Assembly (NCBI RefSeq): GCF_964204645.1
Contig: NC_134026.1
Coordinates: 31,051,432 to 31,115,431 of the forward strand
Length of the DNA stretch: 64,000 bases
Origin: Tubulanus polymorphus
Lineage: Eukaryota; Animalia; Nemertea
Reading direction: 5' to 3'
Below are positions 21,187-61,983 of the stretch, in pieces. The notes beneath the pieces are model-generated. The model saw only the letters and a list, made by a program, of their open reading frames with translations. It searched no databases and was not told where the DNA came from. The position numbers and the translations under genes are program-made. Every line of letters starts with the position of its first letter. Position 1 is the stretch's first letter.

Positions 21187-21523
<337 letters not shown>

Positions 21524-23973: not shown

Positions 23974-24627
23974 TTAGACGAGTGAAGGGAAGAGTTCTGT
24001 GAATGATTCCTCCCACATATCGTCGCTGCTGAGAGCTGATATATCGCTACTCGGCGAGGCAGCATCACTGAAATCACTGTAACCAGAATCACTATATCCA
24101 CCTGTACTCAGTGTATTACTGGTAGCTGCTGGTGCTGCCGTTGCTGCTGCTGCTGCTGGTGCGATGATGCTATTATTGTCAATGCTGCTGCTGCTACTGT
24201 CTGTTGTCGGTACAACCTTAGAAATATCACAAATATCAGTCACCATGGATAACAGATCCTCATTGAGGAAACTTTCCAATGATTCGATGTCTTTCAACGT
24301 GAGAATGTTTTCGACTGAACTGTTGGAATTATTTTCGTCGTACGCGGAAAAGTTTATTGTCGGAACGGTTGGAGGGGTTATCATTGTTGGAAGCTCGGTT
24401 GTATCCATGGTAACGGGTTTAGGGGCAGGTTCCGTCTTGTGGTAAACGTGATCAAATTTTATGAGTTCATTGATGGATTCCAACTGTTTTGCTGTGGACC
24501 CCACCATCTCAACGTCGGGCTGCTCGACGGTTGGGCTAGTTGTTTTCGGTTCTCCGTATACGGGAGCGGTCTGGGATTTGACTTCGGTGCTTTGGAGTTG
24601 TTGGAGTAACCCCAGGAATACATCAGA
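23974..24627 (-). CDS. XBP1: XBP1 exon 3 (read in the XBP1s frame to stop 23974-76; the unspliced-frame stop is at 24459-61)
   Basis: Acceptor tgtttcag. ORF 23974..24654 gives the spliced-frame activation domain. ORF 24459..24641 gives the unspliced-frame tail. Confidence 0.8.
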   Translation of the reverse strand, partial: SDVFLGLLQQLQSTEVKSQTAPVYGEPKTTSPTVEQPDVEMVGSTAKQLESINELIKFDHVYHKTEPAPKPVTMDTTELPTMITPPTVPTINFSAYDENNSNSSVENILTLKDIESLESFLNEDLLSMVTDICDISKVVPTTDSSSSSIDNNSIIAPAAAAATAAPAATSNTLSTGGYSDSGYSDFSDAASPSSDISALSSDDMWEESFTELFPSLV

Positions 24628-27109
24628 CTGAAACATTGCAAAATTACAATCCATTACAACGATTTATAAACCAGTTTTTCACTACAATTACATGTAATTT
24701 GACTTTAAAAACAGTAATTTAATTGAAAATGAACTAGAAACCAAATTCTAATCTTTGAGTTATTTGATAGAGTAGATGGTAACTACCCTCTGCAAATATT
24801 AGCACAACTTCCAGATCCACAGTTATGAGTTAGAATAAACTGTGAACTCGGGATCCAGTTCCACAGTTGTGAGATAGTTATCTCTTGAGTTTAAGTTAGT
24901 TCATCTTCTCTGAGTTAACTCAGAGTCAAAAATCTTAAGTTCAAGAAGTAATTAATTAATTAATTACCTGAGAGTCATTAGGAAAGTGAGACAACGAGTT
25001 GCAGCCAGATAATGAGCCAATACCCGCCCCTGCTGCTGAGAGACTTTGAGTGCTGCTGACTCACAGGTGGTAGGCTCTTCTTTGACTACAACATCGTTTT
25101 GTCCTAATCCTAAACGTTCTCGTAATTGATCATTTTCTTGCTCCAACAACAACGTTTTGTTTTCCAGATCTTTATTTTCGTTCATCAACTGTTGATTTTC
25201 ATCTTCGAGTTCCGCGACGAGACTTTCTAATTCACTCATTCGCGCTTTCTTTCGATCGCGAGCAGTTTGAGCGGCAACGCGATTCTTCAGTTTCCTGTAA
25301 AACATTCAATTTGAAATCGTTTACATTCATTTACTCGCCCTGCACCAGTTTTATTTAGTCTCTTAAGATCTGCTGAATCACTGCAGCATTTCAAAACTTT
25401 TCTTAAAACTTAACTTTTGGCGGCTAAGACGCTGAATAAAGTCAATTGTACAGACAAATAATGGATTAGAAAATAGAGATGACTTCAGGATTAATCTGAC
25501 GATTGGTCAAGACTCAAGTCCAAAAATGGTGTTAAATTCTAAGTCTGGTTGTTGTTAGATCGGCTTTATAAGAGCTTCAGAGCTTCAATGGTCTTCGACA
25601 GGTCTTAAGTTACATTGGCAATAAAAATAAAATGAGCTTAGACTGGTCTTAAGTTACATTGGCAATAAAACTAAAATGAGCTTAGACTGGTCTTAAGTTG
25701 TTTGGTTATAGAACCAAAATGAGTTTAGACAGATCTTTAGAGTTCAAGCTATGACTTGGGACCTGGCCCCAGATAACAACCTAACGGCTAGTAAGTGAAT
25801 TTGATTGTACAAGTACTTTTAAGAGGATAGACTTTTAAATTAATTCTAAACGTAAATTGAGAGACTTAATTAGATCAAAAACATATGGCACATAATAAAG
25901 GGCTGTAACATATGTGAAATTGAATACACGCTGCTTACATCAGCATTAAATTCACTATCGATAACAATTCTAGGCACAGCTGTATTTAACAACATGAAAG
26001 TGAAATCATTAGCAATTTTAGACGTATAGTATTCAAATAGCTGTAAGGCTAAATATATTGATTAAAATTCCACTAGTTTATCAAAGTAACAGCCATCAAA
26101 CCCCCGGGGGTAAGTTCGATGTGAAATACGAAAATAGCAGTGATAACTAGACACACCCCTGAAAAGAGAGAGAGAGAGACCACACCCAAACTATTTCTAC
26201 AAGAGATATATCAAAAACAAATCAGAGTAGTTGCGAAATATCTTAATCGCGGAAGCATCTAAAACATAATCATACTAAAGTTCCTTAAATGTCAGAAGTA
26301 ATAAAATTGTATTATTCACTTGTATTCATTGATTAATGCTTTATGTTTTATGTATTTCAGAATAAATTGTAGGTCTACTGTTTAGGTCTAATGAACATGT
26401 GGGTAAAAGTGCAGATCTGCACCTCTCCGCGTAAACGGTTCAATCAATTACGTTAAAATCATTGTTTGAGATTCAAAATGTCATCAGCAATTCAGTAAAT
26501 TGCCATTGGTTAATTTCAAGATATCTTCACTAGAGAGAGTAGAAAGATTTTAGCCAGGATTCTGTCATTCAGCAGATTGCGTCAATCACTCAAGAGGTGC
26601 GCATCTGCACCAAATGTGTAGTCTACATTTGTAGTGGAACTATTACATTTAAAAAAATACATAATTACATAAATTTATACCAATCTATCTTTTTAGTTAC
26701 ATGTAGCACTTTATACACAATGTAATATTTTGATTTAAAGTATCAATACAAGTAATCAAAATATCTCTGTCCTCTCAGTCTCTGGGAGTACGATCAAGAC
26801 AGTACTGCTGACACCCGCAGTTTACCCCTCCAAATTTGACAAGCTGGCAGAAAACCCTTAACTTACTAATTACACAATTAACTGTTAATTCTGATACGAA
26901 ATTAGAGTTGGATTTAGAATTTACCTGCGCATCATTCGTTCCTCGGGTGTAAGATGAGTAAGTCGCCTTCTTTTCCTTGGCTGTTGATCTCCCAGTAAAC
27001 CAAATCTGTCCATGTCTACTGTAGACGTTGTGTAGTGGCCACCACTGGTACTGGCTGCGCCCGATTTTCGGGGCATCGTGATCACTATCGTCTTCGGAAC
27101 GCTTGTCAT
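23974..27109 (-). CDS. XBP1: X-box binding protein 1 (XBP1) gene, 3 coding exons, bZIP factor with an IRE1-spliced frame-switch intron
   Basis: Exon 1 ...QPRKRRRLTHLTPEERMMR(R). Exon 2 KLKNRVAAQTARDRKKARMSELESLVAELEDENQQLMNENKDLENKTLLLEQENDQLRERL... is a near-perfect match to the XBP1 basic region and leucine zipper. The unspliced frame ends in a hydrophobic HR2-like tail (VLAHYLAATRCLTFLMTL) with stop at 24459-61. The +1 frame after removing the short intron continues through exon 3 to ...DDMWEESFTELFPSLV*, an acidic transactivation tail like XBP1s. Confidence 0.85.
24968..25294 (-). CDS. XBP1: XBP1 exon 2 (bZIP; contains the unconventional intron)
   Basis: Acceptor ttttacag on the minus strand. 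Encodes (R)KLKNRVAAQTARDRKKARMSELE... Conventional donor CAG|GTAATT at the exon end. Confidence 0.85.
25036..25055 (-). other. XBP1: Predicted IRE1-excised unconventional intron of XBP1 (20 nt, or 23 nt if cleaved one CAG later)
   Basis: The minus strand reads ccacctgTGAGTcagcagcACTCAaagtctctcagcagcaggggc. The 5' hairpin has stem TGAGT/ACTCA and loop CAGCAGC. The 3' hairpin has stem GUCUCU/AGGGGC (two G-U pairs) and loop CAGCAGC. Both loops fit the CNG|CNGN IRE1 consensus. Intron length mod 3 = 2, which switches to the activation-domain frame. Confidence 0.55.
25480..25775 (-). mobile_element. Same MITE family, minus orientation, inside XBP1 intron 1
   Basis: Ends ...CTTGGGACCTGGCCCC (reverse complement of the GGGGCCAGGTCC terminus). 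Interior GGTCTTAAGTTACATTGGCAATAAAA(C)TAAAATGAGCTTAGACTG x3. Confidence 0.55.
26925..27109 (-). CDS. XBP1: XBP1 exon 1 (ATG at 27109)
   Basis: ORF 26921..27109. Basic motif RKRRRLTHLTPEE. Donor AG|GTAAAT on the minus strand. Confidence 0.8.
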
Positions 27110-29012: not shown

Positions 29013-32000
29013 GTATGTCTATCGGTTATTACATCAGGTGATTTAAGCAGGCTTACTGATAGTCAGTTACCTGACTGTGTTTTAGTTTCACGTTCGGATA
29101 TTTTCACAAACCACATAACCACACATGTAGTCTGAATACCAGTCGTTGTTACGGTTGTTTCAGGAACAATGGCTAGGTACTAGACTACCACACATAAGTA
29201 TAAGCCCATCCGATTATAAAAAGCTTACCAACGATTAGGTAACTAACTATAGCTTACTGATTAAGCTAGGGTACTTGCATAAAAACCGATAAACCTTTTT
29301 CTAAAATTGAGCTGGTAAAATTTGTCCGAATCAAGAGTTAAAAAACCAGAAAAAATGTTAGAAAGTCAGAAAATGATTTCATTTTAGTCCTATATAAGTT
29401 AGAACCCCAGGGCCCGGTTCCATAGTCATGGCTTAGACTTAAGACCAGTCTAAGACCAAATTAGTTCTATAGCCAATCTAACAACTTAAGACCAGTCTTA
29501 AGATTTAAGACCACTGTTGGAAGTCACGACCATGCAGCAGGCCCCCCTGAGTTCAGCATTGTAGAGATTTACTCTATTTTCGATATCTTGTTTTATGGGT
29601 TAATTTTCAATGTACGTCTATAACATGCATTTCATATCAGCTGAAACCTGCTGTTGCTTAGTCATATCTATTTCTATTGCCTTTTTATCATTTTGTACCG
29701 GAAAAAGTAGTTGCGGGGTCATCTCAGATTCATTAAGTTCCTATCCCTTATCATATCTAATGAATTCATTCAATGAAATGCCCCCTGACCTCGCTGAGAT
29801 ATGATTAATAAGTTTTGCTCGTATATTTTAGAGTTGTTTATGGCCCGGAGCGTATGATAACAATTCCACCGAGACATTATTGCATTATTGAAAATCCTGT
29901 GCACAAAAATGACAAAGGCGAAGTCCAGTTTCATGTGAGCGGACAGGTAAAATTGTTACACGCCGACCAAGATATCCGACTAGCGCAGGACCCGTTCCCT
30001 TTATACCCTGGTGAGACTGTGAAGGGCGCCGTCACTCCGTTAAAGGTTGTCGTAGCGAATTCCGCTCTTCGACTTCGAGCCTTACTGGATTTCAAAGACG
30101 ATCGCGGAAATGAAAAAGTAGCAGGCGACGAATGGCTTTTTGAAGGACCAGGTACGAATATATAAACTCATAATAGAGTATACACTCAGCTTAAGTCTGA
30201 TCCAACTCAGATATCACTCTCAAGTCAAAAGATCCGACTTGAGCGGAGTCTACTGTATCATCCAACTCAGATATCACTCTCAAGTCAAAAGATCCGACTT
30301 GAGCGGAGTCTACTGTATCATCCAACTCAGATATCACTCTCAAGTCAAAAGATCCGACTTGAGCGGAGTCTACTGTATCATCCAACTCAGATATCACTCT
30401 CAAGTCAAAAGATCAGACTTGAGCGGAGTCTACTGTATCATCCAACTCAGATATCACTCTCAAGTCAAAAGATCCGACTTGAGCGGAGTCTACTGTATCA
30501 TCCAACTCAGATATCACTCTCAAGTCAAAAGATCAGACTTGAGCGGAGTCTACTGTATCATCCAACTCAGATATCACTCTCAAGTCAAAAGATCAGACTC
30601 TTCAGCGGAGTCTACTGTATCATCCAACTCAGATATCACTCTCAAGTCAAAAGATCTGACTTGAGCGGAGTCTACTGTACCATCCAACTCAGATATCACT
30701 CTCAAGTCAAAAGATCAGACTTGAGCGGAGTCTACTGTATCATCCAACTCAGATATCACTCTCAAGTCAAAAGATCCGACTTGAGCGGAGTCTACTGTAT
30801 CATCCAACTCAGATATCACTCTCAAGTCAAAAGATCCGACTTGAGCGGAGTCTACTGTATCATCCAATTCAGATATCACTCTCTAGTCAAAAGATCAGAC
30901 TTGAGCGGAGTCTATTGTACCATCCAACTCAGATATCACTCTCAAGTCAAAAGATCAGACTTGAGTCTACTGTACCATCCAATTCAGATATCACTCTTTA
31001 GTCAAAAGATCAGACTTGAGCGGAGTCTACTGTACCATCCAACTCAGATATCACTCTCAAGTCAAAAGATCAGACTTGAGCGGAGTCTACTGTACCATCC
31101 AACTCAGATATCACTCCCAAGTCAAAATATCTGACTTGAGCGGAGTCTACTGTATCATCCAACTCAGATATCACTCTCAAATCAAAAGATCAGACTATAG
31201 CAGAGTCTACTCCGCATGTACATTTCTGTACTTCACTGTACATTTAGTTCACTGTATACATGTAGTTCACTGTACATGTAGTTCACTTGTACTTGTAGTT
31301 CACTGTAAATGTCGTTGTTGATTTGTAGGAACTTACATTCCACGTAAAGAAGTCGTAGTCGAGGAAACAATCCGTGCTACGATCGTAAAACCGAATCAAG
31401 CGATCAGATTACGAGCTCGAAAAGAAACAACAGATCGAGATGGAAATGCTAGGGTTACCGGTGAGGAATGGCTGTCGAAGAAATGTGGTGCTTACCTCCC
31501 AGGAGCTTACGAAGAAGTCATTGATGTTGTAAACGCTTACGTGTTGACAGAAAAGGTTTGTTTTGTTTATTCTTTTACAAATGGCCCCATTCATGACAAA
31601 ATTTTGCTCATTTTCAACAATTGCAATTTAAGGAATTATTTCGGTATGTTCCCAATGTCTGACCCTCTCTCCATGGATGTGAATGCTCTTTATGAAGTCA
31701 ATAAAGTCCTTCACACTTAAAAAACAGCCCAAATTACAATAAGCTAAACTCAAATCTATTCGAATAAGTGATCATTGTTTTCAAGGGGTAATAAATCCAA
31801 TTTGATTGATATTCTATTAAGGATTTCTAGGATTTGACTTGAAATAATTGAAGAGCTTTGTTATATCAGTGGATTAGTGTTTGAGTTGATAATTTGACTC
31901 GCGATAATTGAAGAGCGTTTAATATTTCACTGTTTATAGAAAGCGCTTCACATGACAGCGACGAGAACGTTTACAGATGATTACAAAGTAGAACGTAAAA

Positions 32001-37274: not shown

Positions 37275-39097
37275 CTAAAAAAGAGGCGAATATTGAACCT
37301 AAAAGAGGCAAATATTCAACCTAAAAGAGGCGAATATTGAACCTAAAAGAGGCAAATATTCAACCTAAAAGAGGTGAATATTCAACCTAAAAGAGGCAAA
37401 TATTCAACCAATTGAACCTAGAATAGAATACAACAAAACAAGTTAAACTCTGCCTAACTCGGTAGTGTTGGCACTGCTGCAGATATTTCACCGAGTTGAC
37501 AATCAGGGAACTCGGTAGTGTGTTGGCACTGCTGTAGATATTTCACCGAGTTGACAATCAGGGAACTCGGTAGCGTTGGGACTGCTGTAAATATTTCACC
37601 GAGTTGACAATCAGGGAACTCGGTAGTGTGTTGGCACTGCTGTAGATATTTCACCGAGTTGACAATCAGGGAACTCGGTAGTGTGTTGGCACTGCTGTAG
37701 ATATTTCACCGAGTTGACAATCAGGGAACTCGGTAGCGTATTGGGACTGCTGTAGATATTTCACTGAGTTGACAATCAGGGAACTCGGTAGTGTTGGGAC
37801 TGCTGTAGATATTTCACCGAGTTGACAATCAGGGAACTCGGTAGCGTGTTGGGACTGCTGTAGATATTTCACCGAGTTGACAATCAGGGAACTCGGTAGT
37901 GTGTTGGCACTGCTGTAGATATTTCACCGAGTTGACAATCAGGGAACTCGGTAGCGTCGGGACTGCTGTAGATATTTCACTGAGTTGACAATCAGGGAAC
38001 TCAATGGTGTTGAGACTGCTGTAGATATTTCACTGAGTTGACAATCAGGGAACTCGGTAGTGTGTTGGCACTGCTGTAGATATTTCACTGAGTTGAGAAT
38101 CAGGGAACTCAATGGTGTTGAGACTGCTGTAGATATTTCACTGAGTTGACAATCAGGGAACTCGGTAGCGTGTTGAGACTGCTGTAAATATTTCACTGAG
38201 TTGACAATCAGGGAACTCAGTAGTGTTGAGACTGCTGTAAATATTTTACCAAAGCAGGGAAATATATTTTCCAAATAAATTGTCGTTAACTGTGTTAGGA
38301 GCAGTCTAATGTTAATGCCTTAACATACGTATTCAGGTACTTACTCCATATCTATTCATAGTATTCGGTCGTCCTTTAGGAAAATCACTTTTCTCAAAAT
38401 GACTCAATTCTTCTATGAGTTGTTTACAGAATTCACGTGTAAAAACAGGTAATGAGAAAACACGTGGAGCTGACGTCTGTTCAACACGAGACAAGATTCC
38501 ACTCTTAGTCGCTGATTCAGATTTACAATAATCAACAAGATCCACGAATTCCCGACGGAAAAAACTCTCCTGAAAATAAACAGAATGTTTAGCTAAGACA
38601 AGGTCGAGAAAAACAAGGTTGGATTGAGTGTATACGTGATTTGTAGCTATGTTTTGGCCAGAAACTACAAGCCACCAAAACCTAATTAAGGGGTTAAGAT
38701 GAAACATACCCCAGTCTGTATTCATACTAGTGTAGAACCAAGCCGTCGTTCCACAAACAACGGAACCCGTAACAACGACTGGTATTCACACTATATTTAT
38801 ACCCATTGTTAGTTACTTATCGTTGGTGGTAAGCTTTTTATAATCGGATGGGCTTGATTTTGGAAAATATCCGATCGTGAAACTAAACCCCAGACAGGTT
38901 ACTGACTGACCTATTGTGTGTTTGTAGTATACCTGTATATTGTATAGATGAGGATGAAGTGGTTTATATTGAGCTTTGATCAACTTTCGTCTTTCAACTG
39001 ATTGAAAACCGAGTGACTTCCTTCGTTTTACTTCATCGTGAATCTCTGTAAGGACCGATTCAATTTCTTCATCTTTTAAACTTCTTTCTTTAGACAT
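36789..39097 (-). CDS. 2-oxoglutarate/Fe(II)-dependent oxygenase family protein (OGFOD2-like), 3 exons, about 291 aa
   Basis: Exon 1 MSKERSLKDEEIESVLTEIHDEVKRRK...HPHLYNIQ. Exon 2 ESFFRREFVDLVDYCKSE...FPKGRPNTMNRYG. Exon 3 VLLDEIGFKDF...HFDNAEITLNVSLN...GGCLYF...HSLGYGLLHRGQHMHGALPITDGERCNLIIWMRS...*. The H-x-D ... H ... R-x-N/S motifs are typical of the P4H-like 2OG oxygenase fold. GT-AG junctions are all phase 0. Confidence 0.55.
37285..37412. repeat. 22-bp tandem repeat CCTAAAAGAGGCGAATATTGAA x about 5.5
   Basis: Direct reading. Abuts the exon 3 acceptor of the oxygenase-like gene. Confidence 0.9.
37447..38265. repeat. Minisatellite, 53-bp unit x about 15, in intron 2 of the oxygenase-like gene
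   Basis: Unit CTCGGTAGTGTGTTGGCACTGCTGTAGATATTTCACCGAGTTGACAATCAGGGAA. It contains the internal inverted repeat CTCGGT...ACCGAG. ORFs 37454-38274 are artefacts. Confidence 0.95.
38345..38569 (-). CDS. oxygenase-like exon 2
   Basis: Acceptor tttattttcag, donor GGA|GTAAGT. ORF 38333..38725. 75 codons. Confidence 0.55.
38740..38890 (-). mobile_element. Family B repeat copy in intron 1 of the oxygenase-like gene
   Basis: The reverse complement contains CAGTAACCTGTCTGGGGTTTAGTTTCACGATCGGATATTTTCC / AAGCCCATCCGATTATAAAAAGCTTACCACCAACGAT / GTGAATACCAGTCGTTGTTACGGG. Confidence 0.55.
38932..39097 (-). CDS. oxygenase-like exon 1
   Basis: ATG at 39097, donor CAG|GTATAC. Part of ORF 38813..39118. The boundary is +/-1 because of a sequence/track discrepancy near 39060. 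Confidence 0.4.

Positions 39098-39837: not shown

Positions 39838-42597
<2,760 letters not shown>

Positions 42598-58561: not shown

Positions 58562-61983
<3,422 letters not shown>

Follow-up and report, generated by a model that had tools for sequence, protein, structure and literature searches.

The window analysed here is a 64,000-nt stretch of the genome of Tubulanus polymorphus, in which a gene with three coding exons was found on the minus strand, the strand of all XBP1 features described below. Coding exon 1 (26925-27109) begins with the ATG at 27109 and encodes the N-terminus up to RKRRRLTHLTPEERMMR, where the basic region begins. Exon 2 (25294-24968) is bordered by the acceptor ttttacag/ and the donor /gtaatt and encodes the basic region and leucine zipper, the putative IRE1 site and the start of a hydrophobic HR2-like segment. 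A spliceosomal intron (24967-24628) separates it from exon 3 (23974-24627), which is read in two frames, one carrying the tail of the unspliced product, XBP1u, to its stop and the other the activation domain of the predicted spliced product, XBP1s, to a TAA at 23976-23974. The unspliced product of 226 aa is identical over its entire length (226/226, 100%) to NCBI entry XP_074642509.1, X-box-binding protein 1-like of T. polymorphus. A Pfam search places bZIP_1 at residues 59-115 (E 5.9e-11) and also matches bZIP_2 (E 9.5e-10). A protein search gave 1025 homologues; among the 120 listed, those bearing a name were overwhelmingly XBP1, and several spanned 88-100% of the predicted spliced protein. 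The sequence RKLKNRVAAQTARDRKK is invariant in alignments of the XBP1 homologues. Searches of the PDB returned generic bZIP matches only, and a PDB search with the XBP1u C-terminal tail returned no match. By its domain and its homologues the gene is an orthologue of XBP1, the metazoan bZIP factor of the UPR, as it had been named in the initial annotation.

Within exon 2 the mRNA is predicted to form a bifurcated stem-loop (BSL) at 25010-25080, an element delineated by the predicted fold, Rfam and a covariance model; it had previously been placed at 25020-25075, where it does lie, but the whole structure is slightly larger. The minus-strand letters quoted for the site were confirmed: TGAGT (25063-25059), CAGCAGC (25058-25052), ACTCA (25051-25047), AAG, TCTCT (25043-25039), CAGCAGC (25038-25032) and AGGGG (25031-25027). 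The BSL has an outer exon-exon stem (GAGCC 25077-25073 with GGCUC 25018-25014) and an inner stem (ACCUG 25068-25064 with CGGGU 25026-25022), from which two hairpins would emerge, UGAGU[CAG/CAGC]ACUCA at 25047-25063 and UCUCU[CAG/CAGC]AGGGG at 25027-25043, where brackets enclose the 7-nt loop and the slash marks the predicted IRE1 cut. These cuts fall at G25056/C25055 for the 5' splice site and at G25036/C25035 for the 3' splice site, and the predicted unconventional intron between them (25036-25055) is 20 nt long, CAGCACUCAAAGUCUCUCAG. The closing stem is 5 bp long in the 5' hairpin and 5-6 bp in the 3' hairpin, where an additional G25044-C25026 pair is possible, and both loops conform to the CNG/CNGN rule (C1, G3, G6), as had been claimed.

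Folding had been suggested as a check on the site, and its outcome was divided. The minimum free energy fold of the 71-nt element approximates the BSL at -20.4 kcal/mol, but a 66-nt segment taken alone is not more stable than its shuffles (z = +0.8), and for this reason weight was put on the architecture and the comparative data rather than on folding energy. Both strands of the window were scanned for pairs of CNGCNGN loops that have closing stems of 3 bp or more, lie 14-30 nt apart and shift the frame; the motif occurs once, at the XBP1 site, and in none of 300 simulated Markov-1 sequences of 64 kb. Rfam family RF04247 (bZIP non canonical Hac1/Xbp1 intron) matches 25014-25077 with 34.8 bits (E 2.4e-4, 2 kb searched) in an alignment that takes in both loops and all stems. 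This score does not reach the gathering score of 41, and the whole window gave no RF04247 match at threshold. Clear orthologues score 28-47.7 bits with the same model and only 3/10 attain 41 or more, so that most of the spiralian sites with short introns in this comparison fall below the curated threshold. In Tubulanus the second position of each loop is A, which lies outside the C(C/U)G/CAGC consensus of a survey of 34 vertebrate, insect and nematode species (PMC4687415) and agrees with the rule of three conserved bases given in PMC4891664. In the predicted fold of the spliced RNA the exon-exon stem stays and CCUG/CAGG-type pairs are added around a 9-nt loop, with a short exon-exon zipper (ES1). 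Judged from its letters and relatives, the site is well supported as an ordinary IRE1-cut mini-intron of the Hac1/Xbp1 non-canonical kind, that is, as a predicted IRE1 substrate.

Comparison with orthologous loci, a second check that had been suggested, bore the prediction out. Ten further loci are matched at the orthologous position by the RF04247 model, and in the resulting 11-sequence alignment 79.7% of cells pair compared with 70.3% in shuffles, a value reached by 0/500 shuffles; pairing falls to 35-51% once the partners are slid. Pairing is highest in the 5' hairpin helix (96% of cells in the 11 species, 4/5 pairs showing compensatory changes) and the 3' hairpin helix (93%, 2/5 pairs), followed by the outer exon-exon stem (84%, four compensatory pairs), whereas the inner 5-bp stem in the register chosen is only 47% paired. 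A leave-one-out covariance model, R1, built from ten orthologues without the window sequence, finds a single site in the window, at 25010-25080, with 77.1 bits and 20/20 standard pairs.

Across these loci intron length takes the values 17, 20, 23 and 26 nt and is always 2 modulo 3. An intron of 20 nt is common to half (5/10) of the related invertebrate sequences compared. It occurs in Saccostrea echinata (L009), Gigantopelta aegis (L010) and the marine transcripts L002, L003 and L005, and also in L006 and its duplicate, L007. The closest relatives, L002 and L003, both have an intron of this length, the 3' loop of L003 being CUGCAGC. The relative L001 has a genuine 23-nt intron, and L004 and Paralvinella have introns of apparently 17 nt. 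The initial annotation had remarked on the shortness of the Tubulanus intron and on its identical loops as departures from known examples. Neither feature is supported as unusual: 20 nt recurs in the sequences just listed, and the 5' and 3' loops are identical to each other in L001 (both CAGCAGA) and in L006 (both CUGCAGC) as well. The length of the Tubulanus intron is therefore no oddity.

The unspliced sequence at the site reads GTGAGTCAGCAGCACTCAAAGTCTCTCAGCAGCAGGGGCGGG. Removal of 20 nt (25055-25036) would give GTGAGTCAGCAGCAGGGGCGGG, with the nucleotide junction GTGAGTCAG/CAGCAGGGGCGGG, the peptide junction ESA/AGAG and a predicted product of 381 aa. As 20 is not divisible by 3, the frame changes at the junction, and the shifted frame runs on for 239 codons, ending in DDMWEESFTELFPSLV before the stop at 23976-23974; the 226 further codons given earlier correspond instead to the residue count of the unspliced protein. 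The shift had been described as +1; introns of 20, 23 and 26 nt are indeed equal modulo 3, but in the coordinates of the unspliced mRNA the shift is +2 (i.e. -1). The predicted 381-aa product aligns with XBP1s proteins to the C-terminus, and a multiple alignment shows its ESAAGAG junction to be the same as in P0083, the product of a vertebrate XBP1s transcript; pairwise BLASTP against a vertebrate XBP1s had returned local pieces only, without the junction. The spliced-frame blocks SDVFLGLL, LESINELIKFDHVYHK and WEESFTELFPSLV are kept as far as vertebrates, and SDVFLGLL, INELIKFDHVYHK and WEESFTELFPSLV align with amphioxus and vertebrate XBP1s. Both reading frames, unspliced and spliced, are conserved in relatives. 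These alignments support the view that excision would exchange the hydrophobic tail for an acidic, Ser/Thr-rich activation domain, the character previously ascribed to the spliced frame.

Without excision, the frame runs as predicted through the hydrophobic HR2-like segment VLAHYLAATRCLTFLMTL (25023-24968), continues beyond the spliceosomal intron as SLMYSWGY in exon 3 (24627-24604) and stops at the TAA at 24461-24459. The Kyte-Doolittle maximum over 19 residues is 1.26, at XBP1u residues 153-171, and the LTFLMTLSL core of the segment is kept in relatives. The C-terminus, LRWWGPQQNSWNPSMNS followed by the stop (24512-24459), is a candidate translational arrest peptide. It contains the conserved XBP1u C-terminal motif WWGPQQNSWNPSMNS; six spiralian XBP1u proteins have the pattern WWG..Q..WNPS.N without variation, and it appears in Tubulanus as W212-W213-G...W220-N-P-S-M224-N-S. 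Similar tails close the unspliced frame in an oyster, a gastropod, an annelid, amphioxus and a vertebrate transcript (ending in LWGPHQQSWKPLMK). At the level of sequence the layout of an XBP1u targeting module is present, with HR2, an interval of about 50 residues and the C-terminal tail just before the stop; the Tubulanus spacing agrees with that given in PMC11077094, where the role of the human motif is also described. XBP1u of Tubulanus is accordingly a candidate for a co-translational targeting module made up of HR2 and an arrest peptide.

An intron of 23 nt had also been entertained, in which IRE1 would cut the same site one CAG further downstream, after G25033. The mRNA would then read GTGAGTCAGCAGGGGCGGG, with the junction GTGAGTCAG/CAGGGGCGGG, ESA/GAG in the peptide and a product of 380 aa. 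The CAGCAGG at 25035-25029 fits CNG/CNGN, the frame is the same as with 20 nt, and L001 provides a relative with an intron of this length, but the shifted loop lacks a closing stem of at least 3 bp in the twin-loop scan, one Ala is lost from the ESAAGAG junction common to P0083, L002 and L003, and both the Rfam model and R1 place the 7-nt loop at 25038-25032. Of the two lengths first offered, 20 nt is therefore retained, and the longer one appears improbable. Neither predicted product, of 381 aa or of 380 aa, had an exact match in a protein collection, and a scan of metagenomes and metatranscriptomes with the spliced-junction 21-mer gave chance matches only, in three copies of an unrelated poly-Q gene. 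A spliceosomal micro-intron was rejected, as the segment begins with CA rather than GT and is 20 nt long; spliceosomal introns start with GT, and 20 nt is too short for one.

The twin CAGCAGC might instead be no more than CAG-rich sequence coding for Gln, Ser and Ala, with hairpins that arise by chance and an alternative frame that is reached by some other route or never. The site does encode SQQQ, the same window holds a perfect (CAG)111 array at 21188-21521, and the folding energy is unexceptional. Such an origin is nonetheless very hard to reconcile with a motif that occurs nowhere else in the window and in none of the 300 simulations, with stems that covary across phyla, with intron lengths that are always 2 modulo 3 (17, 20, 23 and 26 nt), and with an alternative frame that meets no stop over 239 codons and can be aligned with XBP1s as far as the last residues; we give it hardly any weight. 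Equally little weight attaches to the proposal that IRE1 cleaves the site but that cleavage leads in this lineage mostly to RIDD-like mRNA decay. Passages in PMC4687415 and PMC8674358 describe degradation of mRNAs by IRE1 through similar stem-loop motifs, and nothing specific to this locus points that way; productive splicing is favoured by the conservation of both sites, of the stem that pairs the two exons and of the entire activation domain that XBP1s has in the shifted frame. Overall, we put at about 90% the probability that the window contains the XBP1 gene of the nemertean T. polymorphus and that its mRNA has a 20-nt unconventional intron at 25055-25036.

By analogy with the established IRE1-XBP1 pathway, XBP1 would presumably be spliced in Tubulanus under ER stress, in the bifurcated architecture and by the mechanism described by Peschek et al. 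2015 (PMC4687415) and summarized in PMC11077094. The unspliced mRNA would be translated to the 226-aa XBP1u, and the HR2-like segment and a pause of the ribosome at WWGPQQNSWNPSMNS would jointly carry the ribosome-mRNA complex to the ER membrane. Upon ER stress, active IRE1 would cut each CAG/CAGC loop 3' of G3, the exon-exon stem would keep the exon halves paired while the 20-nt intron is let go, and RtcB ligase would join the exons. The resulting frame switch would replace the hydrophobic tail with the 239-residue acidic Ser/Thr-rich activation domain of an active 381-aa XBP1s.

In vertebrates (human and mouse, with amphioxus L011 examined) the host gene is orthologous, and the site shares with that of Tubulanus the BSL with its exon-exon central stem and two 7-nt loops cut after G3, the Tubulanus cuts being predicted. 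Also shared are the ESAAGAG junction and the switch from an HR2/arrest-peptide tail to an activation domain (PMC4687415; PMC11077094). The Tubulanus intron is 6 nt shorter than the 26-nt vertebrate one and the linker between its hairpins is 3 nt rather than about 9; its loops are CAGCAGC twice, those of amphioxus CCGCAGC and CUGCAGC, and its gene differs from the vertebrate XBP1 compared in having three coding exons. The spiralian sites (L009, L010, L002, L003, L005, L006) share the 20-nt intron and the architecture, a junction of the form (E/G/R)SA(A/E)G and the XBP1u C-terminus WWG..Q..WNPSMN, but in most of them the loop starts with CUG rather than CAG. Drosophila and C. elegans xbp-1 and plant bZIP60 use the same mechanism and belong to the same length class modulo 3, with introns 3 nt longer. 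The xbp-1 introns of Drosophila and C. elegans are 23 nt long. Plant bZIP60 likewise has 23 nt, but in the plant substrate the activation domain is N-terminal and the arrest peptide is a different one (PMC11077094). Fungal hacA/hac1 of Aspergillus niger, A. nidulans and Trichoderma reesei also has an IRE1-dependent 20-nt intron (PMC6627864), but in a distantly related bZIP to which alternative transcription starts and uORFs are added, and for which no XBP1u-type HR2 and arrest peptide is described.

It is possible, though we regard it as somewhat doubtful, that spiralian XBP1 forms a short-intron class, of 20 nt in nemertean, oyster and gastropod, with apparent 17-nt introns in an annelid and a single transcript, lying outside the species set and loop consensus of PMC4687415. 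If so, a 17-nt intron with abutting hairpins would be shorter than the 19-nt IRE1 intron cited for Candida albicans (PMC6222058) and, by that comparison, the shortest, and 17 nt would set a lower bound on the spacing between two cleavage sites for the IRE1 oligomer. A literature search by genus name, covering spiralians and cnidarians, brought up nothing relevant on XBP1 splicing. A full-text search found no paper on a 20-nt animal intron; its scope did not take in Hooks & Griffiths-Jones 2011, reportedly the survey behind the Rfam family of Hac1/Xbp1 introns.

The finding matters mostly for annotation, as the NCBI entry for Tubulanus XBP1 has the unspliced isoform only. Several public gene models of spiralian XBP1 (Paralvinella, Saccostrea, Tegillarca) are chimeric and pass from one frame into the other, since the IRE1 intron is not modelled by gene-prediction pipelines. 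XBP1s, with its predicted 381 aa, would be the active transcription factor and, seen as a 20-nt size shift, the right read-out for ER-stress assays in nemerteans. Conservation of the IRE1-XBP1 switch, together with the XBP1u pause and targeting tail, would extend, not surprisingly, to Nemertea, and within Spiralia intron length appears to step by 3 nt (17, 20, 23) with loops and junction peptide unchanged.

The eukaryotic DNA of the window is AT-rich, with a GC content of about 0.38, and carries on its minus strand an XBP1 gene with three exons: exon 1 (27109-26925), which opens with ATG; exon 2 (25294-24968), with acceptor ttttacag and donor gtaatt; and exon 3 (24627-23974), the downstream exon joined to exon 2. 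In the unspliced frame these encode a 226-aa protein (XBP1u) in which the Pfam domains bZIP_1 and bZIP_2 were detected, and which is identical at every residue to XP_074642509.1, "X-box-binding protein 1-like" of Tubulanus polymorphus, a palaeonemertean ribbon worm. Nearly all named proteins among the 120 homologues listed are called XBP1.

The sequence quoted in the initial annotation as an IRE1 site matches the minus strand exactly. It holds a 5' hairpin, UGAGU[CAGCAGC]ACUCA (25063-25047), and a 3' hairpin, UCUCU[CAGCAGC]AGGGG (25043-25027), separated by AAG. Both strands were scanned for two CNGCNGN loops, each with a closing stem of at least 3 bp, at a spacing of 14-30 nt that was not a multiple of 3; the XBP1 site was the sole match in the window, and the motif occurred in none of 300 Markov-1 simulated 64-kb sequences. 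The Rfam family RF04247, "bZIP non canonical Hac1/Xbp1 intron", matches at 25014-25077 (minus strand; 34.8 bits, E 2.4e-4) over its full model length, with both loops and every helix aligned. This falls short of the family's gathering score (41), and no Rfam model reached its own gathering score anywhere in the 64-kb window.

For comparison, the corresponding sites of ten relatives were examined. Six are transcripts taken from marine metatranscriptomes or from Logan assemblies (L001-L006; L007 is a copy of L006), and four are genomic loci, from the annelid Paralvinella palmiformis (L008), the oyster Saccostrea echinata (L009), the gastropod Gigantopelta aegis (L010) and the amphioxus Branchiostoma lanceolatum (L011). 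Twin 7-nt loops are present in all ten, and RF04247 matches the orthologous position in each (28-47.7 bits), with only three of these ten clear orthologues reaching the gathering score. In the 11-sequence alignment, 79.7% of cells pair, versus 70.3% after column shuffling (none of 500 shuffles as high), and sliding the partners by 1-3 columns lowered pairing to 35-51%. This alignment, which had been proposed as a check, bore out both hairpins: the 5' hairpin paired in 96% of cells and showed compensatory double changes at 4 of its 5 pairs, and the 3' hairpin paired in 93%, with such changes at 2 of 5. For the outer exon-exon stem the figure was 84% (double changes at 4 of its 5 pairs), and for the inner stem only 47% in the chosen register. 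A covariance model trained on the ten relatives alone, with the window left out, found a single site in the whole window (25010-25080, minus strand; E about 1e-23), with 20 of 20 pairs standard and a score of 77.1 bits that partly reflects plain sequence conservation of the coding region.

The predicted fold is that of a bifurcated stem-loop, with GAGCC/GGCUC as its outer stem, ACCUG/CGGGU as its inner stem, and the two hairpins as arms. The minimum free energy structure of the 71-nt context (-20.4 kcal/mol) is essentially this canonical form, for which the strict structure has -18.0. A 66-nt fold had no stability advantage over shuffled sequences (z = +0.8), and folding energy alone therefore proves nothing.

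Cleavage after the G at loop position 3 would remove 20 nt (25055-25036), giving the junction GAG UCA G/CA GCA GGG GCG GGU (E-S-A-A-G-A-G). The resulting predicted 381-aa XBP1s aligns with a vertebrate XBP1s transcript product (...AESAAGAGPA...), with amphioxus XBP1 and with a single-ORF invertebrate XBP1s (...ESAAGT...), through SDVFLGLL and LESINELIKFDHVYHK as far as the C-terminal WEESFTELFPSLV. The initial annotation had allowed 20 or 23 nt. An intron of 23 nt, the length predicted in L001, would cost one Ala of the ESAAGAG junction and use a shifted loop without a closing stem, and both closest relatives, L002 and L003 (3' loop CUGCAGC in L003), have 20 nt. Because of these points the 20-nt intron predicted from the sequence is strongly favoured over one of 23 nt. 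A length of 20 nt is also predicted for L005, L006, Saccostrea and Gigantopelta, 26 nt for amphioxus, and 17 nt for L004 and Paralvinella; every one of these lengths is 2 modulo 3. No spliced Tubulanus transcript was found in a metagenome/metatranscriptome scan with the junction 21-mer, and the predicted XBP1s did not appear in the protein collection. The matches of the 21-mer were to three copies of a single unrelated gene, low in GC and eukaryote-like, that starts MAQPSSNGDLSQQQGQGQQQQQW (L013 3117-3137, L014 4629-4649, L015 5977-5997); short CAG-rich junction probes are thus not specific.

Orthologous XBP1 sites in L004 (507-530, Logan SRR16601882) and Paralvinella (1785-1808, JAODUP010001238.1) appear to have IRE1 introns of just 17 nt. 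Their hairpins abut directly, the Paralvinella 3' hairpin having 3 closing pairs only, and removal of 17 nt keeps an ESAEGT or ESAAGT junction in the activation-domain frame. Among the papers examined, the shortest IRE1 intron mentioned has 19 nt, in C. albicans (PMC6222058).

The unspliced frame is conserved as well. The hydrophobic maximum of XBP1u spans residues 153-171 (VLAHYLAATRCLTFLMTLS...), and the protein ends ...LRWWGPQQNSWNPSMNS. The tail WWG..Q..WNPS.N is invariant in 6 of 6 spiralian XBP1u proteins compared, and a similar tail terminates the unspliced frame of oyster, gastropod, annelid, amphioxus (WGPQHHAWTPLRN*) and a vertebrate transcript (LWGPHQQSWKPLMK*). Two frames thus overlap along about 170 nt of exon 3, and both are conserved. 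The arrest peptide of human XBP1u halts the ribosome when one codon is left before the end, about 50 residues past the hydrophobic segment HR2, and thereby allows HR2 to bring the complex to the ER membrane (PMC11077094). The Tubulanus tail occupies the position of this peptide, M224 lying about 48 residues past the end of the hydrophobic segment.

In its anatomy the site matches the bifurcated stem-loop model of Peschek et al. (2015). There, a central exon-exon stem bears two arm hairpins of exon-intron pairing, IRE1 cleaves each 7-mer loop 3' of its position-3 G, and the exons remain paired, zipper up to eject the intron and are ligated by RtcB (PMC4687415). In predicted folds of computationally spliced RNAs of Tubulanus and most relatives, the exon-exon stem is kept and a few pairs are gained at the junction, which is consistent with the zipper model. 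The analysis itself shows the sequence, the predicted structure, the covariation and the conservation of both frames; by the established pathway, Tubulanus XBP1 mRNA would be cleaved by IRE1 at both loops and ligated, and XBP1u would pause the ribosome and be targeted to the ER membrane. The proposed IRE1-type intron is supported by the twin-loop motif, the RF04247 match, covariation and the conservation of both frames.

At 20 nt, the predicted intron is indeed shorter than the well-known XBP1 introns of vertebrates (26 nt) and of flies and worms (23 nt), but the length is shared by about 5-6 of the ten relatives. The plant intron has 23 nt (PMC11077094), and the hacA/hac1 introns of Aspergillus and Trichoderma likewise have 20 nt (PMC6627864). 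L001 and L006 likewise have identical loops, a feature that had been thought unusual. With A at loop position 2, the Tubulanus loops depart from the consensus C(C/U)G/CAGC, which was drawn from 34 vertebrates, insects and nematodes (PMC4687415); CAG loops are found elsewhere in L001-L003 and Paralvinella, and across kingdoms strict conservation is limited to three bases per loop (PMC4891664).

Several repeats were also noted in the window. A (CAG)111 array (21188-21521; 334 bp, 100% matches) lies about 2.5 kb from the XBP1 coding end. An AT-rich inverted repeat within spliceosomal intron 2 of XBP1 (24865-24965) matched miRNA families of plants and animals on both strands, but weakly and far below threshold (E 0.8-2.2); this palindrome probably arose by chance or is transposon-like. 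In the 40-42 kb bin, a spike in GC skew (+0.42) and AT skew is accounted for by a long (GA)n array at 41124-41708, with about 307 copies. Large minisatellite arrays lie at 30200-31211 (60 bp x 17), 37456-38250 (55 bp x 15), 59903-60767 (48 bp x 18) and 60969-61734 (27 bp x 22), the last coinciding with strong negative AT skew at 60-62 kb.

XBP1u is the only annotated form of the Tubulanus gene (23974-27109). Public spiralian gene models from Paralvinella (P0009), Saccostrea (P0007) and Tegillarca (P0006) are chimeric: they stay in the unspliced frame beyond the IRE1 site before switching to the XBP1s frame. Full-text literature searches returned no 20-nt animal IRE1 intron, although Hooks & Griffiths-Jones 2011 may already tabulate them, and no description of the IRE1-XBP1 system in the ribbon-worm phylum was found in the literature searched. 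This is the textbook IRE1-XBP1 system, now in Nemertea, and its value lies in an annotation fix and in one more data point for how intron length varies within Spiralia.
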